Shown one piece after another: positions 14,765 to 34,459 of a stretch of DNA of 64,000 nucleotides. The stretch is from Polyangiales bacterium. GTDB taxonomy: Bacteria > Myxococcota_A > Polyangia > Polyangiales > Polyangiaceae. The first letter of the stretch is position 1. The number at the start of each line of letters is the position of its first letter. Location of the stretch: positions 32,001 through 96,000 of the forward strand of contig JBBRLQ010000022.1 of NCBI GenBank assembly GCA_038231275.1. Direction: 5' to 3'. Both the position numbers and the translations under genes were made by a program. The notes below the pieces were generated by a model that saw only the letters and a program-made list of their open reading frames with translations, did not search any database and was not told the origin of the DNA.

Positions 14765-15280
14765 TCAACCTTCCACGATCAGCGGGGCCTCCACGAAGCC
14801 CCGACGCAAAGGATCCCACACGAAGAGCTTCCGATCGTCGACGACGCCGGCGCGCACGCTCGTGACGAGGTACGCGAGCTCGTACGTCGGCTCTTCTCCG
14901 CCGGCGGTCGCGGCCGCGGCGTCGGTGTCGGAGAAGTAGGACCCGACGTCGAGGTGCGAGTGGTAGAGCACCTTCACCGGCCGGCCGTTCGCCTCCCCTT
15001 CGCGCACCGCCCGCGCAAATTTCATCGGATCGAGGTCGAAGTACATCCGCCCCGTCCGCGGGTACGTCTCCGGATCGAGCGCGTGGAGCTTGTTCGCGCG
15101 GTTCTCCATCGGCACGACCTCGTCGATGCGGAGCGCGTCGCCGGCGGGGCCGCGGAGCAGCCCACAGCTCTCCTCGTCTCGCGCATACGCGGCGCGCGCC
15201 TCCTCGAACACGCGGTCGAGGAGCTCCTTGCCGATGACCACGCCGGAGACCGCCCACGGATGGCTCGTCACGTCTCGCAT
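14765..15280 (-). CDS. mec: JAB/MPN (JAMM) metallopeptidase, CysO-cysteine peptidase (Mec-like)
   Basis: EESCGLL and the JAMM motif YHSHLDVGSYFSDTD; lies in an operon with a Ubl, cysM and moeB. Confidence 0.85.
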   Translation of the reverse strand: MRDVTSHPWAVSGVVIGKELLDRVFEEARAAYARDEESCGLLRGPAGDALRIDEVVPMENRANKLHALDPETYPRTGRMYFDLDPMKFARAVREGEANGRPVKVLYHSHLDVGSYFSDTDAAAATAGGEEPTYELAYLVTSVRAGVVDDRKLFVWDPLRRGFVEAPLIVEG

Positions 15281-15300: not shown

Positions 15301-16245
15301 TCACCAGACATATTTCTTCTCCCACTTCATCGGCGCGAAATACCGGTCGCCGCGGTCGGCCACGATGACGACGACGCATCCGCCTGCTCCGCTCTCCTGC
15401 AGCTCCTCCGCGAGGCGCACGGCGGCGAACACGTTGGCGCCCGACGAGTGGCCCACGTTGAGCCCTTCCTTCTGCGCGAGCAGCTCGGACATGTTCCACC
15501 CGTCCTCGGTCTGGACGCGCACGGTCTCGTCGGGGATGCCCGCGTCGTAGATGGCGGGCACGATGCTCGACGCGAGGTGCTTCAAGCCCTCGAGCCCGTG
15601 CATCGCCTCGGTCGGCTCGACGGCCAGGCACCGGATCTTCCGCGCGTGCTCCTTCAAGCGCCGCGTCGTCCCCATCATCGTCCCCGTCGTGCCGATCCCG
15701 GCGATGAAGTGCGTGATGCGATCGCCTAGCGCTTCGACGATCTCTGCGCCGGTGCCGAAGTAGTGCGCGAGTGGGTTTTGCGGGTTCGAGTACTGGTCGG
15801 GGTAGTAGTAGCGCCCCGGCTCCTCCTTCACGATGCGCTGCACGTGGAGGATGGCGCCGTCGGACCCTTCCATTGGATCGGAGAAGACGATCTCGGTGCC
15901 GAACGCGCGCGCGATGTCCTTGCGCGCTTTGGACACGTTCATCGGCATCACCAGGCGCACCTTTACGCCGAGCGCGGCGCCGAACAGCGAGTAAGCGACG
16001 CCGGTGTTGCCGCTCGTCGAGTCGATGAGGATCTTGTCGCGCGTGAGCTCGCCGGACGCGAGCGCCTCCTGCATCATGCGGAGCGCCGCGCGATCCTTGA
16101 CGCTGCCGCCAGGGTTGCAGAACTCGAGCTTCGCGTAGACCGGGACGTCCGGGCACTTCTCGGTCACCTTGCGGAGGCGCAAGAGCGGCGTGCGGCCGAC
16201 CGCGTCCACGATCGACTCCGAGCGAAACGCGCGCGCGAGGCTCAC
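15301..16245 (-). CDS. cysM: PLP-dependent cysteine synthase, CysM-like (probably sulfur-carrier dependent)
   Basis: KLEFCNPGGSVKDR (PLP Lys), STSGNTG, GIGTTGT, SSGAN, DRGDRY; GTG start overlaps the upstream stop. Confidence 0.85.
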   Translation of the reverse strand: MSLARAFRSESIVDAVGRTPLLRLRKVTEKCPDVPVYAKLEFCNPGGSVKDRAALRMMQEALASGELTRDKILIDSTSGNTGVAYSLFGAALGVKVRLVMPMNVSKARKDIARAFGTEIVFSDPMEGSDGAILHVQRIVKEEPGRYYYPDQYSNPQNPLAHYFGTGAEIVEALGDRITHFIAGIGTTGTMMGTTRRLKEHARKIRCLAVEPTEAMHGLEGLKHLASSIVPAIYDAGIPDETVRVQTEDGWNMSELLAQKEGLNVGHSSGANVFAAVRLAEELQESGAGGCVVVIVADRGDRYFAPMKWEKKYVW

Positions 16246-16523
16246 GACGCCCCGCCGATCCAGGCGCGACGAAGCGCGACGAGCGCCGCGTGCGCCCCCG
16301 TCGCCACATCGCGCGCCGCAGGATCCGCGATCTCGAACGGCAGCACGTGGACCTCGGAGGCCTCGCCGTCGACGCTCGCGCCCGCGGCCTCGAGGTACCT
16401 CCGCTCCACGCGCGCGGCCTCCCCGCGGGTCGCCAGTGCGAGCGAGGTCCCGGCCAGGCGCGCCTGACCTGCCTCGCCGACCTCGACGAGGCGCGTCTGC
16501 CGCGTGTAGCGCCGCGCCGCCAC
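16242..16523 (-). CDS. 93-aa degenerate, inactive MoeB/ThiF-like protein carrying the RYxRQ segment
   Basis: RYTRQTRLVEVGEAGQARL...RYLEAAG aligns by eye to the MoeB N-terminus (RYSRQ...GQ..L...YLA.AG), but the GxGGxG loop is replaced by ATRGEAA. It fits exactly between the Ubl and cysM genes. Confidence 0.75.
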   Translation of the reverse strand: MAARRYTRQTRLVEVGEAGQARLAGTSLALATRGEAARVERRYLEAAGASVDGEASEVHVLPFEIADPAARDVATGAHAALVALRRAWIGGAS

Positions 16524-16525
16524 GA

Positions 16526-16798
16526 TCAGCCGCCGGCGATCGCGGGGACGATGCTGATTTGATCGCCACCCTTCACTTCGGTGCCGAGCCCGTTCAGGAA
16601 GCGAACGTCCTCCTCGCCGACGTAGATGTTGATGAAGCGCCGAACGCCCTTCGCGTCGAGCAGGCGATCCTTGATGCCGGGGTGCCGCTTCTCGAGATCC
16701 TCGATGACGGCGCCGACGGTGCCGCCATCGGCCGGGACCTCGTCCTTGCCGCCGGTGAGCGGGCGGAGCGGGGCGGGAATTCGAACGATCGTGCTCAT
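16526..16798 (-). CDS. MoaD/ThiS/CysO-family ubiquitin-like sulfur carrier
   Basis: 90 aa, VRIPAPLR, RRFINIYV, DVRFL and the C-terminal PAIAGG diglycine; AAGGAG RBS. Confidence 0.92.
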   Translation of the reverse strand: MSTIVRIPAPLRPLTGGKDEVPADGGTVGAVIEDLEKRHPGIKDRLLDAKGVRRFINIYVGEEDVRFLNGLGTEVKGGDQISIVPAIAGG

Positions 16799-16812
16799 GG
16801 TCTTCTCCTTGG

Positions 16813-17547
16813 TCATCCTTCGCAAACACTCGAGTCGGGCGGCGCGTAGCGGGCAGGGTCGATGTGATCGATCGTTCCGATGCGCCGGACGCCACAAAGC
16901 GCGCACCCGAGGCGGGCGGGGACGCGGCGGCGGCGGAGGGCGTCGGTCTTGCCGTCGAACGTGACGAGCGTGCCGGCCACGTCGGCGCCGTCGATCATGG
17001 CGAGCGCCAGATCCGCCTGGAGCGCCCCGACCACGCCGACCATCGGGCCCACAACGCCGGCCTCCCCGCAGTTCGGGGCGTCGCCCTCCGGGAGATCCTC
17101 GAAGAGGCAGCGGTAGCAGGGCCGCCCTCCCCGCGCGACAGCGAACGCCGTGCCGTGCCAGCGTACGGCCGCCGCGTGCACGATGGGGACCTTGGCGATC
17201 GCGCACGCATCCGCGGCGAGGAACTTCGTCGCGAAGTTGTCGCTCCCCTCGACGACCAGATCGTATCCGCCGACGAGATCGACGGCGGTAGCGGGGAGGA
17301 GCCGTGTCCGATGCTCCTCGACCTTCATGCCAGGCGCCTCGCGCGCGAGGGCCTTCGCGGCGGCACCGACTTTGTGCGCGCCGACGTCGGCGTCGGTGAA
17401 GAGGATCTGACGATGGAGGTTGGTGACATCGATCTCGTCGTCGTCGCACAGACCGAGCGTGCCGACGCCGGAGCGCGCGAGCACGAGCGCGGAGGGGCAC
17501 CCGAGGCCGCCGACGCCAACGACGAGGACGCGCGCGCGCGATCTCAC
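16813..17547 (-). CDS. moeB: MoeB/ThiF-family (E1-like) adenylyltransferase, N-terminally short
   Basis: VLVVGVGGLGCP, TNLHRQ, GSDNF, zinc motifs CYRC and CALC, PNCGEAGV Cys. GTG start overlaps the cysK stop. No RYSRQ N-terminus and no rhodanese domain. Confidence 0.9.
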   Translation of the reverse strand: MRSRARVLVVGVGGLGCPSALVLARSGVGTLGLCDDDEIDVTNLHRQILFTDADVGAHKVGAAAKALAREAPGMKVEEHRTRLLPATAVDLVGGYDLVVEGSDNFATKFLAADACAIAKVPIVHAAAVRWHGTAFAVARGGRPCYRCLFEDLPEGDAPNCGEAGVVGPMVGVVGALQADLALAMIDGADVAGTLVTFDGKTDALRRRRVPARLGCALCGVRRIGTIDHIDPARYAPPDSSVCEG

Positions 17548-18530
17548 GGCGCCTCCTCCGGGAAGTAGTCGGCGAGGCTGAAATACCGCTCTCCGGTGTC
17601 GCACATGACCGTCACGACGTGCTTGCCCGGCCCGAGCTCTCGCGCGACGTCGTCGGCGACGAACGCGGCGGCGCCGGCGCTGATCCCGACGAGGAGCCCG
17701 CTCTCACGCGCGAGGGCCAGCTTCGCCTTCCACGCGTCCGCGTCGGACACGGTTCGCACCTCGTCGACGACATCCGCATGATAGTTCTTCGGCACGAAGC
17801 CGGCGGCGAGTCCCTGGATTTTGGTGGGTCCGCGCTCTCCGCGCGAGATCGTCGCGCACGCTTCCGGCTCGACGGCCACGATGCGGGGACCACCGCGCGT
17901 CGCGGGTCCGAGCTCCGCGCGCAGCGCCTTGCCGACGCCGCTGATCGTCCCGCCGGTCCCTACGCCGGCGACGAACGCGTCGATCGACAGATCGCGCATC
18001 GCGTGGAGGATTTCGCGCGCGGTGGTCTTCGCGTGCACCTCGGGGTTGGCGGGGTTGCCGAACTGATCGGGCAAGAACGCGCCAGGCGTCACCTCCCCAA
18101 GCGCGCGCGCCGCGCGGATCGCCCCTTCCATCTGCTCTTCGGCCGGCGTCAGCACGATCTTCGCGCCGTAGGACTCGAGGAGCTGGCGGCGCTCGAGGCT
18201 CATGCTCTCGGGCATCGTCAGGATGCACGTGTACCCCTTCACGGCGCACACGAGCGCGAGCCCGATGCCGGTGTTGCCACTCGTCGGCTCGATGACGACG
18301 CCGCCCGCTTGGAGGCGTCCGCTCTTCTCCGCCTTCTCGATCATCGCGAGGCAGATGCGATCCTTCAGCGAGCCGCCGGGGTTCAAGTGCTCGAGCTTCG
18401 CCCACACCGTCGCGCGTGGCGCCACGGCGGCGTCCCGCGCGGGCGCGAGACGAACGAGCGGCGTCTGCCCGACGAGATCGAGCATCGACTCGGCGATGAG
18501 GAGCGGCCTCGGCGTCGGTGCGGCGCTCAT
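17544..18530 (-). CDS. cysK: Cysteine synthase A (O-acetylserine sulfhydrylase)
   Basis: KLEHLNPGGSLKDR, EPTSGNTG, MPESMSLERR, QFGNPANP, GVGTGGT, KIQGL, DTGERY. Confidence 0.92.
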   Translation of the reverse strand: MSAAPTPRPLLIAESMLDLVGQTPLVRLAPARDAAVAPRATVWAKLEHLNPGGSLKDRICLAMIEKAEKSGRLQAGGVVIEPTSGNTGIGLALVCAVKGYTCILTMPESMSLERRQLLESYGAKIVLTPAEEQMEGAIRAARALGEVTPGAFLPDQFGNPANPEVHAKTTAREILHAMRDLSIDAFVAGVGTGGTISGVGKALRAELGPATRGGPRIVAVEPEACATISRGERGPTKIQGLAAGFVPKNYHADVVDEVRTVSDADAWKAKLALARESGLLVGISAGAAAFVADDVARELGPGKHVVTVMCDTGERYFSLADYFPEEAP

Positions 18531-18532
18531 GA

Positions 18533-18985
18533 TCAGATCACGTAGACGCTCGGCGAGCGCGCTCCGCGGACGATCCCGGCTTGCTCCGCGCGCGCGCACA
18601 CGTCCGCGAGCGTCAACTTCGAGGAGCAGGCCTCCATGTCGTGGGTGAGATCGTCGAGGATCTGATCGCACAGCTCGCGCAGCTCGGGCGGAGCGGCCGC
18701 GCCCTTTCGCGAGGCCTTCGGCGTGGCCCCCTCGGTCGCCTTCAGCACGTCGCCCACCCGGATCTCCGCCGGCGCGCGCGTGAGCTGGTAGCCCCCTCGC
18801 GGGCCGCGCTTCGATGCGACGAGCCCCTCGCGCCGGAGGTCCTGGAAAATCTGCTCCAAGAAGCGCAGCGGGATGCGCTGCCGACGCGCGACGTCCTTGA
18901 TTTGCGCCGGGACGGCGGCGCCGTGGAAGGCGAGATCGCTCAGCGCCCGAACGGCGTAGCGACCCTTGCTGGAGACGCGGATCAT
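18533..18985 (-). CDS. Rrf2-family transcriptional regulator, CymR-like
   Basis: SSKGRYAVRAL, FLEQIFQDL, SKRGPRGGY. Lacks the IscR three-Cys Fe-S motif, ends in YVI and is the first gene of the cys operon. Confidence 0.88.
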   Translation of the reverse strand: MIRVSSKGRYAVRALSDLAFHGAAVPAQIKDVARRQRIPLRFLEQIFQDLRREGLVASKRGPRGGYQLTRAPAEIRVGDVLKATEGATPKASRKGAAAPPELRELCDQILDDLTHDMEACSSKLTLADVCARAEQAGIVRGARSPSVYVI

Positions 18986-20741: not shown

Positions 20742-20871
20742 GCTCCCCCATCGGCACGACCGGCGTTTCGTTGCTCGAAATCCAACCGGCTTGACCCCAG
20801 GGCGCGCTGGGATACCGTGAAGGGGTGCGAGGAGTCGCTCTCCCACATCGGGGGACATCGGAACTGGATTG

Positions 20872-22194
20872 ATGGGGAGTCCAGACGTGCCACTGCAAGC
20901 GTGGACGGTCGCCGCGGCGATCTCCGTCGCTCTCCTTGGTTCCCTCTTCGCGGCGGGGGACGCGGCGCTGACGTCCCTGCCGGAGGGGCGCCTGCAGGCG
21001 CTCACGGAGCTCGGTGGGACCACCGGGGCGGCCTACTCGCGCTACGCGAAGGATCGAGCGCGCGTCTTGTCACGCTGGCTGGTCGGGCGCGTCATCGCCA
21101 TCAGCCTCACGGCGGCACTCCTCGCCGATTTTGCCGATCACGCGTTCTCCGCCCGCGTCGGGCCGCTCGTCGCCATGCTCGGCGCGGTCGTCACCTACGG
21201 AACGTTCGCCGAGGTCCTCGGGACCCTCGCGCGGCGACGCCCCGAGCAGCTCGGCACGCTGGCGCTCCGTTTCCTTCTGCCGCTCGAGTGGGCGGTCGTC
21301 CCGCTCGCCGAGCCGCTCGCCTTCTTGGGGCGCTTCATCAGCTCGCGCCTGCCGGAAGAGTCACCGCGCGACGCCGCGCGCCTCACGGAGACGGAGGTGG
21401 AGTGGGTCGTCGCCGAGGGCGAGAAGAGCGGCGCGCTCGCGGAGGAGCCGGCGGAGATGATCCGCAACGTGCTCGACTTCAAGGACCTCACGGCGCGCGG
21501 CGTCATGGTCCCGCGCCGCAAGCTCAGCGGGATCGAGCTGTCGACGAGGCTCGACAAGGTCGTCGAGCTCGTGTCGACCGAGAAGCACTCGCGCTACCCT
21601 GTCTACCGCGAGACCCTCGACAACATCGTGGGCCTCCTCTACGCGAAAGATCTCTTCGCCGTGGTGCGCGACGGCGAGATCGACAAGAAGACCCTCGGCG
21701 ATCTCATCCGCGCGCCGGTGCTCTTCGTCGCCGAGTCGCAGCCGGCGGCGAGCGTGCTGCGCGAGATGCGCGCGCGGCGCCTGCACATGGCGGTCGTCTC
21801 CGACGAATTCGGAGGGACGGGCGGCCTCGTCACGGTCGAGGACATCATCGAAGAGATCGTCGGCGAGATCCACGACGAGTACGACATGGAGAGCGAGCCG
21901 CTCATCGAGGATCTCGGCGGCGGCAAGTTCATCTGCGACGCGGCGATCCCGCTGGCCGATCTCGCGGTGCGTCTCGGGCGCGAGCTGCCGAGCGACGGCG
22001 ATTTCGAGTCGCTGGGCGGCCTCCTCGTCCACCAGGCGGGGCGCGTGCCGCCGGTGGGAACGAGCTTCATCTTGAGCGGCTTCAAGCTCACGGTGCGCGA
22101 GGCGGACGAAACGCGCGTGGTGAGGGTCGACATCGAACCGGCGCCGGAGGTCGAGCCCGCGACGACGACGGGCGACACCCAGGCGGCTTCGTGA
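20872..22194 (+). CDS. HlyC/CorC (CNNM/DUF21-CBS-CBS-CorC) family Mg2+/ion transporter
   Basis: N-terminal TM helices; VMVPR, HSRYPVY, HMAVVSDEFGGTGGLVTVEDIIEEIVGEIHDEYD; SLGG...GRVP CorC domain. Confidence 0.92.
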   Translation: MGSPDVPLQAWTVAAAISVALLGSLFAAGDAALTSLPEGRLQALTELGGTTGAAYSRYAKDRARVLSRWLVGRVIAISLTAALLADFADHAFSARVGPLVAMLGAVVTYGTFAEVLGTLARRRPEQLGTLALRFLLPLEWAVVPLAEPLAFLGRFISSRLPEESPRDAARLTETEVEWVVAEGEKSGALAEEPAEMIRNVLDFKDLTARGVMVPRRKLSGIELSTRLDKVVELVSTEKHSRYPVYRETLDNIVGLLYAKDLFAVVRDGEIDKKTLGDLIRAPVLFVAESQPAASVLREMRARRLHMAVVSDEFGGTGGLVTVEDIIEEIVGEIHDEYDMESEPLIEDLGGGKFICDAAIPLADLAVRLGRELPSDGDFESLGGLLVHQAGRVPPVGTSFILSGFKLTVREADETRVVRVDIEPAPEVEPATTTGDTQAAS

Positions 22195-33421: not shown

Positions 33422-34459
33422 TCAGAGGCCGACGGCGGTGACGTCGGAAGCGCCTCGCACGACGCCGAGGACGCGGGCGTCGGCGGTGCGGGCCAACGCG
33501 TCGAGCGGGGCGCCGGCGACGAGCGCGCGGAGAATCGCGCCGAGCGAGCCCTCTGCGCCCGCGGCGCGGACGGCGGCGAGCGCCACGTCGACGGCGTCGA
33601 CGTCGAGGAGAGACGAGAGGGCCATCGGCGCGGCGGACGCGACGGGATCGCCGGGCCGCACGCGAGGCTTCCCGCGGAGGACAGGCGCGGCGAGGAGCGG
33701 CGCGACGAGACCGAGCGCCTCGACGAGCGCACCCTCCTCGGGCGCGGGCACCTCGTAGCACGCGACCGCGAGGACTCCGCGCATGTCGGCGGCGAGGACG
33801 GCGTGGATCGCGGCCCCCGACGGCGCGGCCGCGCTCGGGTCACGAACTCCGGCGGACCCCCAGGGGACCACGGCGAAGCGGCGCGCGTCGTGCGTGAAGG
33901 TCGCGCACGCGTCGATTCCGGGGCGCAGATCCTCGAGGTCCTCGGTGGTGACGACGCCGCCTGCCGTTCGACCCGTCGCGGCGACGAGCTCGACGGCGAT
34001 CTGGGCGTCGGCGAGCGCCGAGGGGCCGCGCTGCGCGAGACGGACGAGCACGGCCTTGCGCTCCGGAACGCCGGCCGCGAGCGTGATGCCCGCCGCGGCG
34101 ACTTGCGCGGCCGTCGCCTTGCCGAAGCTCGCGAGCGCCGTCGCGAGCGCCGCGGGGAGCGCCGGTACGCCGACGCGCGCGGCACGCGGGATCACGTCGT
34201 CGGGCAAAAACCCCCGCGGACGCGCCACGCCCTTTCCTGGCTGGCGCACGCGACCATCGATCGCACGAAGGCCAACGCCCGGCCCACCGACGAGGAGCTG
34301 CACTGGACCCAAGAGGACGCCGGCGTGCTCTCCCGCCGCCGCCAGCACGCCCGCGACGACCGCGTCCACCGCGTTGCCGCGCAGGAGCTGCTCGGTCGCG
34401 GCCGCGGCGGCCACCGGATCCGACGCGACGGCGAGCGCGCGCGCGCGACCGGCGGTCAT
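33422..34459 (-). CDS. Degenerate gamma-glutamyltransferase-like protein
   Basis: GNAVDA, IDGR, VGVP and GGVVTTEDL motifs of the GGT large subunit; short (345 aa), and the catalytic Thr region appears replaced. Confidence 0.65.
   Translation of the reverse strand: MTAGRARALAVASDPVAAAAATEQLLRGNAVDAVVAGVLAAAGEHAGVLLGPVQLLVGGPGVGLRAIDGRVRQPGKGVARPRGFLPDDVIPRAARVGVPALPAALATALASFGKATAAQVAAAGITLAAGVPERKAVLVRLAQRGPSALADAQIAVELVAATGRTAGGVVTTEDLEDLRPGIDACATFTHDARRFAVVPWGSAGVRDPSAAAPSGAAIHAVLAADMRGVLAVACYEVPAPEEGALVEALGLVAPLLAAPVLRGKPRVRPGDPVASAAPMALSSLLDVDAVDVALAAVRAAGAEGSLGAILRALVAGAPLDALARTADARVLGVVRGASDVTAVGL

Follow-up and report, generated by a model that had tools for sequence, protein, structure and literature searches.

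Can the activating enzyme of a ubiquitin-like sulfur carrier be put together from a catalytic subunit that has lost its first helix and a second, very small protein that has kept it? The question is raised by a gene cluster in a 64,000-nucleotide stretch of a Polyangiales bacterium genome (positions 32,001 to 96,000 of contig JBBRLQ010000022.1, assembly GCA_038231275.1; this whole stretch is the window), which encodes a MoeB/ThiF-type adenylyltransferase without the usual N-terminus and, close by, a short open reading frame (ORF) whose product we call the mini-MoeB, or mini. We consider it fairly probable that the mini binds the truncated MoeB and restores to it, in trans, the lost N-terminal helix and its arginine. 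What leads us to this reading is the exact complementarity of the two proteins, the near-invariance of residues R8 and Q9 of the mini beside variable neighbours, the linkage of the two genes and the existence of natural fusions between them. We infer the binding, a contact between R8 and ATP, and a stoichiometry of either 1:1 (a pseudo-dimer) or 2:2. The two genes are as follows.

16813..17547, minus strand: N-truncated MoeB/ThiF-type adenylyltransferase, 244 amino acids (aa); Pfam ThiF E 5e-61, profile positions 20–230 of 238
16242..16523, minus strand: mini-MoeB, degenerate ThiF/MoeB relic, 93 aa; RYxRQ...GxxGQxRL, YLxxAG and a conserved C-terminal helix kept, P-loop destroyed

The truncated MoeB and the mini

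The truncated MoeB begins M-RSRA-RVLVVGVGGLGCP. It passes the Pfam ThiF model (PF00899) with 206.4 bits against a cut-off of 28.1 and matches solved ThiF and MoeB chains at E ~1e-41. The Pfam match starts only at position 20 of 238, leaving profile positions 1–19 unmatched, and in the alignment to the solved chains residue 5 corresponds to residue 29 of ThiF and residue 32 of MoeB, so that about 27 N-terminal residues are missing. The in-frame stretch upstream of the start, MRHRRAVFQPRRLLPGGGAV, falls within the conserved end of cysK and is free of RYxRQ; by profile and upstream frame alike, the N-terminal RYxRQ helix that carries the arginine finger is absent. GVGGLG, NLHRQ, CYRC, CALC and PNC are all present. 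The preliminary description of this locus, which had placed the moeB start over the cysK stop, seen no RYxRQ upstream and listed the P-loop, NLHRQ, the CxxC motifs and PNC as kept, agrees with the sequence in each of these respects.

By the offset of the ungapped alignment, G14, R46, K59 and D103 of the truncated protein are the equivalents of MoeB G41, R73, K86 and D130, which are listed as conserved ATP-site residues (PMC12355090). Among 11 aligned members of the clade, G14, R46 and D103 are invariant and K59 is found in at least 90%, and both CxxC pairs (CYRC and CALC, the structural zinc site) are invariant as well. The best 120 homologues of the truncated MoeB (64–82% identity, 232–341 aa) have the P-loop at residue 5–28, median 13, in 120/120 cases; in E. 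coli MoeB it lies near residue 38 by alignment offset. Since all 120 have this early P-loop, the truncated clade is large, like the mini family. The Pfam scan of the 244-aa protein found the ThiF domain alone and no rhodanese domain, and neither an insertion or catalytic-cysteine domain in this protein nor an E2-like (ubiquitin-conjugating) gene among the operon genes scanned was recognised.

Two further features of the protein deserve mention. Past the second CxxC, the truncated MoeBs have a C-terminal tail (window 16813-16890) of about 25 residues, in which I..I...RY is conserved and a cysteine usually stands close to the terminus; it presumably resembles the linker to the rhodanese domain in MoeZ/Uba4-type enzymes. 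The loop cysteine of PNC (window 17068-17076) is replaced by serine in one Polyangiaceae locus (L006) and is gone from all three of the fusion proteins described below (APDPAAAG), and is probably not needed for the reaction in the truncated-MoeB clade.

The mini reads MAARRYTRQTRLVEVGEAGQARL...ATRGEAA...YLEAAG...GAHAALVALRR. The position of the GxGGxG loop is occupied by LALATRGEAA, and the regions that would hold the equivalents of R73, K86 and D130 are absent; judged by these losses, the mini is catalytically dead. It matches no Pfam family. The NCBIfam MoeB and ThiF models match residues 4–49 at the models' N-terminal positions (E 4e-4 and 2e-3), with scores of 19.2 and 17.6 bits that are far under the cut-offs of 449 and 275. 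A 23-member profile of the mini family matches solved Uba4 (E 3e-7), ThiF (2e-5) and MoeB (0.0097) over chain residues 8–80. The mini is accordingly homologous to the N-terminus of the ThiF/MoeB family over its first 50–60 residues, finger arginine included: in the profile alignment R8 falls on ThiF Arg11, the arginine finger, which is Arg14 in MoeB. The two proteins are complementary, in that the element missing from the truncated MoeB is exactly the element that the mini retains.

The translation and these N-terminal matches uphold the preliminary description of a 93-aa ORF with an RQ motif, a destroyed P-loop and YLEAAG. A resemblance of the final helix to the MoeB dimer-interface helix, which it had also suggested, was not recovered. 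Profile–profile comparison of the mini with the truncated-MoeB family gave a single weak alignment, of mini residues 29–57 with MoeB residues 8–38 (E 0.028, probability 1.8%), confined to the P-loop region; it is consistent with the P-loop mapping and lends the last helix no homology to a MoeB helix. An AlphaFold2 model of the mini alone (predicted local distance difference test score, pLDDT, 87.3; predicted template modelling score, pTM, 0.75) has helices at 5–25, 34–46 and 68–89.

Some long relatives of the mini (L005, L010, P0014, P0015, P0051 and others; 115–136 aa) keep extra Rossmann-like pieces after YLxxAGVG. Because of these pieces, the mini looks like a second MoeB copy with its middle deleted and not like a simple split-off of the N-terminus.

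Conservation, linkage and fusion of the mini

A word-indexed search found 13 relatives of the mini (88–119 aa, 43–80% identity), unnamed or called 'hypothetical protein', as the preliminary description had expected for this ORF. An exhaustive search with the family profile returned 4218 representatives at E ≤ 0.001, 436 of them at E ≤ 1e-10; the best 150 matches are nearly all 83–150 aa long and matched over their full length. The relatives thus number hundreds, are about 100 aa long and come mostly from Myxococcota. In the ESM Atlas the mini falls among 'hypothetical protein' clusters of 78–123 members each, again most commonly from Myxococcota.

Conservation was counted in 160 aligned members, after three proteins longer than 150 aa were dropped. 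R8 is kept in 159, Q9 in 157, L12 in 158, E14 in 146, G16 in 157, G19 in all 160 and Q20 in 157; further on, Y43 is kept in 160, L44 in 149, A47 in 152 and G48 in 160, and in the last helix G76 in 157, A77 in 154, A80 in 160 and L81 in 153. The former P-loop positions 30–36 vary freely. The ratio of nonsynonymous to synonymous substitution rates (dN/dS, Nei-Gojobori) for the three closest pairs of minis is 0.34, 0.27 and 0.53; in two of these pairs the MoeB values are 0.20 and 0.17. Purifying selection on the mini, which the preliminary description had proposed to look for, is therefore evident in the range of 0.27–0.53, and there is no sign of neutral decay. The GC content of the mini frame at codon positions 1/2/3 is 0.82/0.61/0.90, and the third-position value (GC3) of the neighbouring genes is 0.86–0.93. 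By all these measures the mini ORF is a real gene.

Long spurious ORFs are many in DNA of 72% GC, and the mini is blank in Pfam, so a decaying fragment or a chance ORF beside a MoeB whose N-terminus has been mis-called had to be considered. We judge this highly improbable. The ORF is intact in 12/12 genomic contexts, at synonymous divergences (dS) up to and above 1; it belongs to a family of hundreds with invariant residues; its dN/dS is below 1 and its GC3 pattern is that of a coding frame; and both its start and its stop are translationally coupled to the neighbouring genes. A mis-called MoeB start is opposed by the lack of an in-frame upstream RxxRQ in the same 12/12 contexts, where cysK occupies the space. 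Mis-called start, chance ORF and decaying fragment are thus all contradicted, by conservation, dN/dS, GC3, coupling and the missing upstream RxxRQ.

In several family members (P0064, 175 aa; P0085, P0163 and P0071) long low-complexity stretches are inserted after the YLxxAG segment and ahead of the last helix; going by these sequences, the middle of the mini evidently tolerates almost anything.

The linkage of the two genes was followed in 64 loci fetched with the mini profile. A free-standing mini is present in 11 (L001-L006, L008, L010, L013, L042 and L055), all from Myxococcota, including Labilithrix luteola and Polyangiaceae. Counting the window, the mini follows cysO and a MoeB without in-frame upstream RxxRQ in 12/12 contexts, which bears out the co-occurrence with N-truncated MoeB that the preliminary description had put forward for survey. 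The full order cysK-moeB-cysO-mini-cysM-JAMM is found in 10 of the 11 loci. The remaining one (L006, Polyangiaceae) has neither cysK nor cysM and retains moeB-cysO-mini-JAMM. The 53 remaining loci have an ordinary full-length MoeB, whose N-terminus accounts for the 'mini' match, with RYxRQ in 40 and DYSRQ or RYxRH in 13; as these loci were found by carrying that very motif, they are no independent control.

Truncated MoeB and mini also occur in one chain. Among the profile matches, P0155 (365 aa) begins as a truncated MoeB, which a linker of about 20 residues joins to a mini behind it. A search directed at the mini portion of this chain brought the number of fusion clusters to three (P0155, P0165 and P0166, 355–365 aa), the mini parts of P0165 and P0166 being 80% and 69% identical to that of P0155. 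P0165 has seven members and P0155 four, and because they come from several independent sources, with contigs of up to 170 kb, an assembly artefact is unlikely. The AlphaFold2 model of P0155, for which 64 rows were aligned (3 fusions, 11 truncated MoeBs and 50 minis, the last on residues 271–365), has a pLDDT of 91.6 and a pTM of 0.91, with 89–98 in the mini part and low values (~60) in the linker only. A pTM this high suggests that the two parts are placed confidently against each other as one compact unit. A Foldseek search with the model matched ThiF/MoeB through the MoeB part alone, over about 230 columns and with target-normalised template modelling scores (TM-scores) of 0.84–0.86.

Since the truncated MoeB keeps the rest of its fold, as these TM-scores of the fusion's MoeB part indicate, the canonical MoeB homodimer might also be retained, with two minis clipped on (2:2) and each restoring the N-terminal arm of one site; the result would be a split protein and no pair of active and inactive activating-enzyme (E1) subunits. 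It is through the adenylation domain that all known bacterial ThiF, MoeB and Cap2 enzymes form dimers (PMC10557695), and a mini of 93 aa is far smaller than a full subunit. It is nevertheless more than an arm, having a beta1/alphaA stub, a conserved last helix and, in the long forms, more Rossmann pieces, and the single-chain fusions fit an intramolecular pseudo-dimer. Neither point is decisive, and we hold the 2:2 arrangement to be rather unlikely.

Two other joined genes were noticed in this family. At L001:2709-3734, in a close relative, no stop codon separates the truncated moeB from cysO and one reading frame spans both, and the same 341-aa protein is present in the protein collection as P0177, with ThiF and ThiS Pfam domains; this may be a true fusion of E1 and carrier or a lost stop codon. 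P0089 (211 aa, metagenomic) is a CysO-mini fusion in which ...AIAGG is directly followed by the mini, in a one-member cluster from short contigs. The GG end of its carrier would be blocked unless a peptidase, perhaps the JAMM enzyme, cuts there.

The operon

The operon genes of interest all lie on the minus strand, in a region of about 72% GC. Besides moeB and the mini they are the following.

18533..18985, minus strand: Rrf2-family transcriptional regulator, first gene of the cluster (Pfam Rrf2 E 3e-30; translation starts MIRVSSKGRY)
17544..18530, minus strand: cysK, cysteine synthase A, a pyridoxal phosphate (PLP) enzyme (NCBIfam TIGR01139, 362.7 bits against a cut-off of 351; Pfam PALP E 8e-73)
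16526..16798, minus strand: cysO, CysO-like sulfur carrier of the ThiS/MoaD fold (Pfam ThiS E 2e-17; C-terminal GG, ...AIAGG)
15301..16245, minus strand: cysM-type cysteine synthase, PLP enzyme (Pfam PALP E 6e-63; TIGR01138 cysM is the best NCBIfam model)
14765..15280, minus strand: JAMM/Mec-type metallopeptidase (Pfam Prok-JAB E 8e-12; HxH...S..D intact)

The cysM-type enzyme matches TIGR01138 with E 5e-95 and 318 bits, which is under the equivalog cut-off of 394; the HxH...S..D motif of the peptidase, HSHLDVGSYFSDTD, was read from the translation. The moeB gene starts with GTG at 17547; this codon follows GGAGGAGG and overlaps the cysK stop as GTGA. The mini starts with GTG at 16523, 2 nt past the cysO stop, and its TGA overlaps the GTG of cysM, again as GTGA. 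By this spacing the operon is tightly and translationally coupled, and the mini is coupled at both its start and its stop.

Together, the GG-ended ThiS-fold carrier, the PLP enzyme of CysM type and the JAMM peptidase of this operon make up the CysO/CysM/Mec gene set. In Mycobacterium tuberculosis, CysO, CysM and Mec constitute a protein-thiocarboxylate route to cysteine, and MoeZ is encoded elsewhere in the genome. By analogy we infer that this operon, too, encodes cysteine synthesis via a protein thiocarboxylate. The likeness extends to the gene set, the GG-ended carrier, the CysM-type and JAMM enzymes and an E1-like activator. MoeZ, however, has a C-terminal rhodanese domain and a normal N-terminus, whereas here there is no rhodanese domain and the N-terminus is lost, and, unlike in the M. 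tuberculosis set, a mini gene lies between cysO and cysM.

Some neighbouring features were also recorded. A weak tblastn match to the CysO-like carrier at window 33842-33985, minus strand (E 0.008, 40% identity over 48 residues), is perhaps a second ThiS/MoaD-fold gene or due to chance. In L006 a 391-aa ORF with a bacterial EndoU nuclease domain (L006:5365-6540, Pfam E 3e-26) fills the place of cysM in the gap between mini and JAMM, and a CNNM/CBS/CorC-type transporter gene, recognised by Pfam, lies near the operon (L006:1775-3082, minus strand); an ORF of similar look, as judged from its translation alone, is found near the window operon at 20869-22194, plus strand.

A possible two-part activating enzyme

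We propose that the activating enzyme for CysO comes in two pieces, the catalytic 244-aa MoeB and the 93-aa mini. In the ancestor of the clade MoeB would have lost its first helix and kept its whole adenylation site, the lost helix being the one that in ThiF/MoeB crosses to the partner subunit and sets an arginine on the gamma-phosphate of ATP. The mini would be the shrunken, dead remnant of a second MoeB copy, with the helix, a beta1/alphaA stub and the C-terminal helix retained. It would bind the truncated MoeB, supply the missing N-terminal element and arginine in trans, and thereby complete or stabilise the CysO-adenylating active site.

Donation of an arginine between subunits, on which the preliminary description had relied, is borne out by published work. 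ThiF Arg11 and MoeB Arg14 are arginine fingers that come from the neighbouring subunit and reach the gamma-phosphate (PMC13139853), and Arg15 of APPBP1 is the sole one of 15 ATP contacts contributed from outside UBA3 (PMC6031683).

Several points nonetheless count against the proposal. According to the same papers, the arginine finger is dispensable for MoeB and ThiF (PMC13139853), and the APPBP1 mutation R15A slows NEDD8 activation without abolishing it (PMC6031683). Given a finger that is non-essential in MoeB, ThiF and APPBP1, the helix missing from the truncated MoeB may itself be dispensable for catalysis, and the word 'obligate' in the preliminary description goes too far. In two of the three fusion clusters the motif is R-H and not R-Q. 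The model of P0155 has no controls and three fused rows, and leans on the solved E1 pseudo-dimers that the network has learned. Foldseek comparison of the AlphaFold2 model of the mini with the PDB, the check proposed in the preliminary description, returned 173 matches at E ≤ 10, of which none reached E ≤ 0.001; SAE1, APPBP1, MccB, UBA6 and Uba4 appear only among these insignificant matches. Purifying selection on the mini is weaker than on MoeB, and the mini evolves faster. Finally, the loci were found through the mini in the first place, and the 12 truncated MoeBs form one clade (support 100/100), so that the N-terminal loss and the co-occurrence represent a single evolutionary event.

The dispensability of the finger in the best-studied relatives means that the mini may contribute less to the chemistry than to stability or assembly. 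At the extreme it would be a genuine partner of the operon's proteins but a non-catalytic one: it might act as a scaffold or a chaperone, or have a regulatory role, for instance by capping the exposed dimer surface of MoeB and controlling activity or assembly from there, with the truncated MoeB active alone. E. coli TcdA is described in PMC13139853 as altogether without an arginine finger, and an APPBP1 mutant unable to bind UBA3 is dominant negative (PMC6031683), from which it follows that inactive partners can matter through binding alone. The C-terminal helix of the mini (G76, A77, A80, L81) is, moreover, conserved as strongly as the RQ motif. A mere cap would not, however, be expected to keep R8 and Q9 near-invariant in 160 members while their neighbours vary, nor to retain exactly the element that MoeB has lost, and we regard a purely non-catalytic partner as unlikely.

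The active-plus-inactive E1 heterodimer of the preliminary description is thus supported in part, by complementarity, conservation, co-occurrence and fusions, with the proviso that a 1:1 pair is indistinguishable from a 2:2 assembly in these data. More tentatively, it is possible that a Myxococcota lineage independently made the symmetric MoeB/ThiF sulfur-carrier E1 asymmetric, with one full active unit and a minimal inactive domain of about 95 residues that serves mainly to keep the trans arginine-finger helix in place at the active site, and that some relatives re-fused the two in reverse order, active then inactive.

The closest enzymes of known structure are E. coli MoeB-MoaD (PDB 1JW9/1JWA/1JWB) and ThiF-ThiS (1ZUD/1ZFN), with which the truncated MoeB shares fold and chemistry, ATP-site residues and the zinc-binding CxxC pairs. 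These are symmetric homodimers of full-length chains, whereas here the finger helix is on a separate 93-aa dead relic. NAE1(APPBP1)-UBA3 and SAE1-SAE2 likewise pair an inactive with an active adenylation subunit, as we propose for MoeB and mini, and SAE1 has a role equivalent to the arginine donation by APPBP1. The inactive subunits of the eukaryotic E1s are, however, full-size (300–530 aa), and these enzymes work with E2 partners and include both a catalytic-cysteine and a ubiquitin-fold domain; in the present case the inactive part is about 95 aa, no E2 was recognised in the operon and the pathway is one of sulfur transfer. Compared by fold, the mini by itself does not match SAE1 or APPBP1 significantly (best Foldseek E 2.8).

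Yeast Tcd1-Tcd2, the dehydratase that forms ct6A (cyclic N6-threonylcarbamoyladenosine), is a similar E1-like pair that works outside ubiquitin signalling; there Tcd1, the inactive paralogue, lends its finger, Arg59, to the active Tcd2 (PMC13139853). It differs in that both subunits are full-length, the substrate is a tRNA and the organism is a eukaryote; R59A is reported there to have little effect. According to PMC10557695, the known bacterial E1-like proteins (ThiF, MoeB, Cap2) are all homodimers and the exception is BilD, of the antiviral Bil operons, with fused inactive and active adenylation domains. BilD is thus a bacterial inactive/active pseudo-dimer, and P0155, P0165 and P0166 are also single chains with both parts. 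BilD, however, has the inactive domain first, a CYS domain and an E2, and conjugates its ubiquitin-like protein to targets, whereas in the fusions described here the active part comes first, a stub takes the place of the inactive domain and the setting is cysteine biosynthesis.

An inactive partner that completes an active E1 unit is therefore already known, from eukaryotes, Tcd1-Tcd2 and BilD; what appears to be new is that a bacterial sulfur-carrier operon encodes a stub of about 95 residues as a gene of its own. A full-text literature search, which did not cover the E1-like superfamily survey that Burroughs, Iyer and Aravind published in 2009, found no description of a truncated MoeB with a separate N-terminal relic. 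For the mini family neither Pfam nor NCBIfam offers a model, and the sources searched give it no informative name.

The prevailing view is that symmetric MoeB/ThiF homodimers were the ancestors of the E1s of ubiquitin-like proteins. To our knowledge, how and why one half of an E1 died is known solely from the large eukaryotic enzymes and, lately, from fused BilD in phage defence. A small natural two-gene version, together with its fusions, would offer a simple setting for asking what purpose the inactive half serves, whether the arginine finger, stability or the asymmetry of the two sites. Hundreds of proteins of about 100 aa that are now unnamed or 'hypothetical' would gain a family and a name, and the adjoining 'MoeB/ThiF' genes would be flagged as incomplete on their own. 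If true, our reading would provide a bacterial biosynthetic parallel of the step toward the NAE1-UBA3, SAE1-SAE2 and Uba1 architectures, and would show how little of an inactive subunit is still worth keeping.

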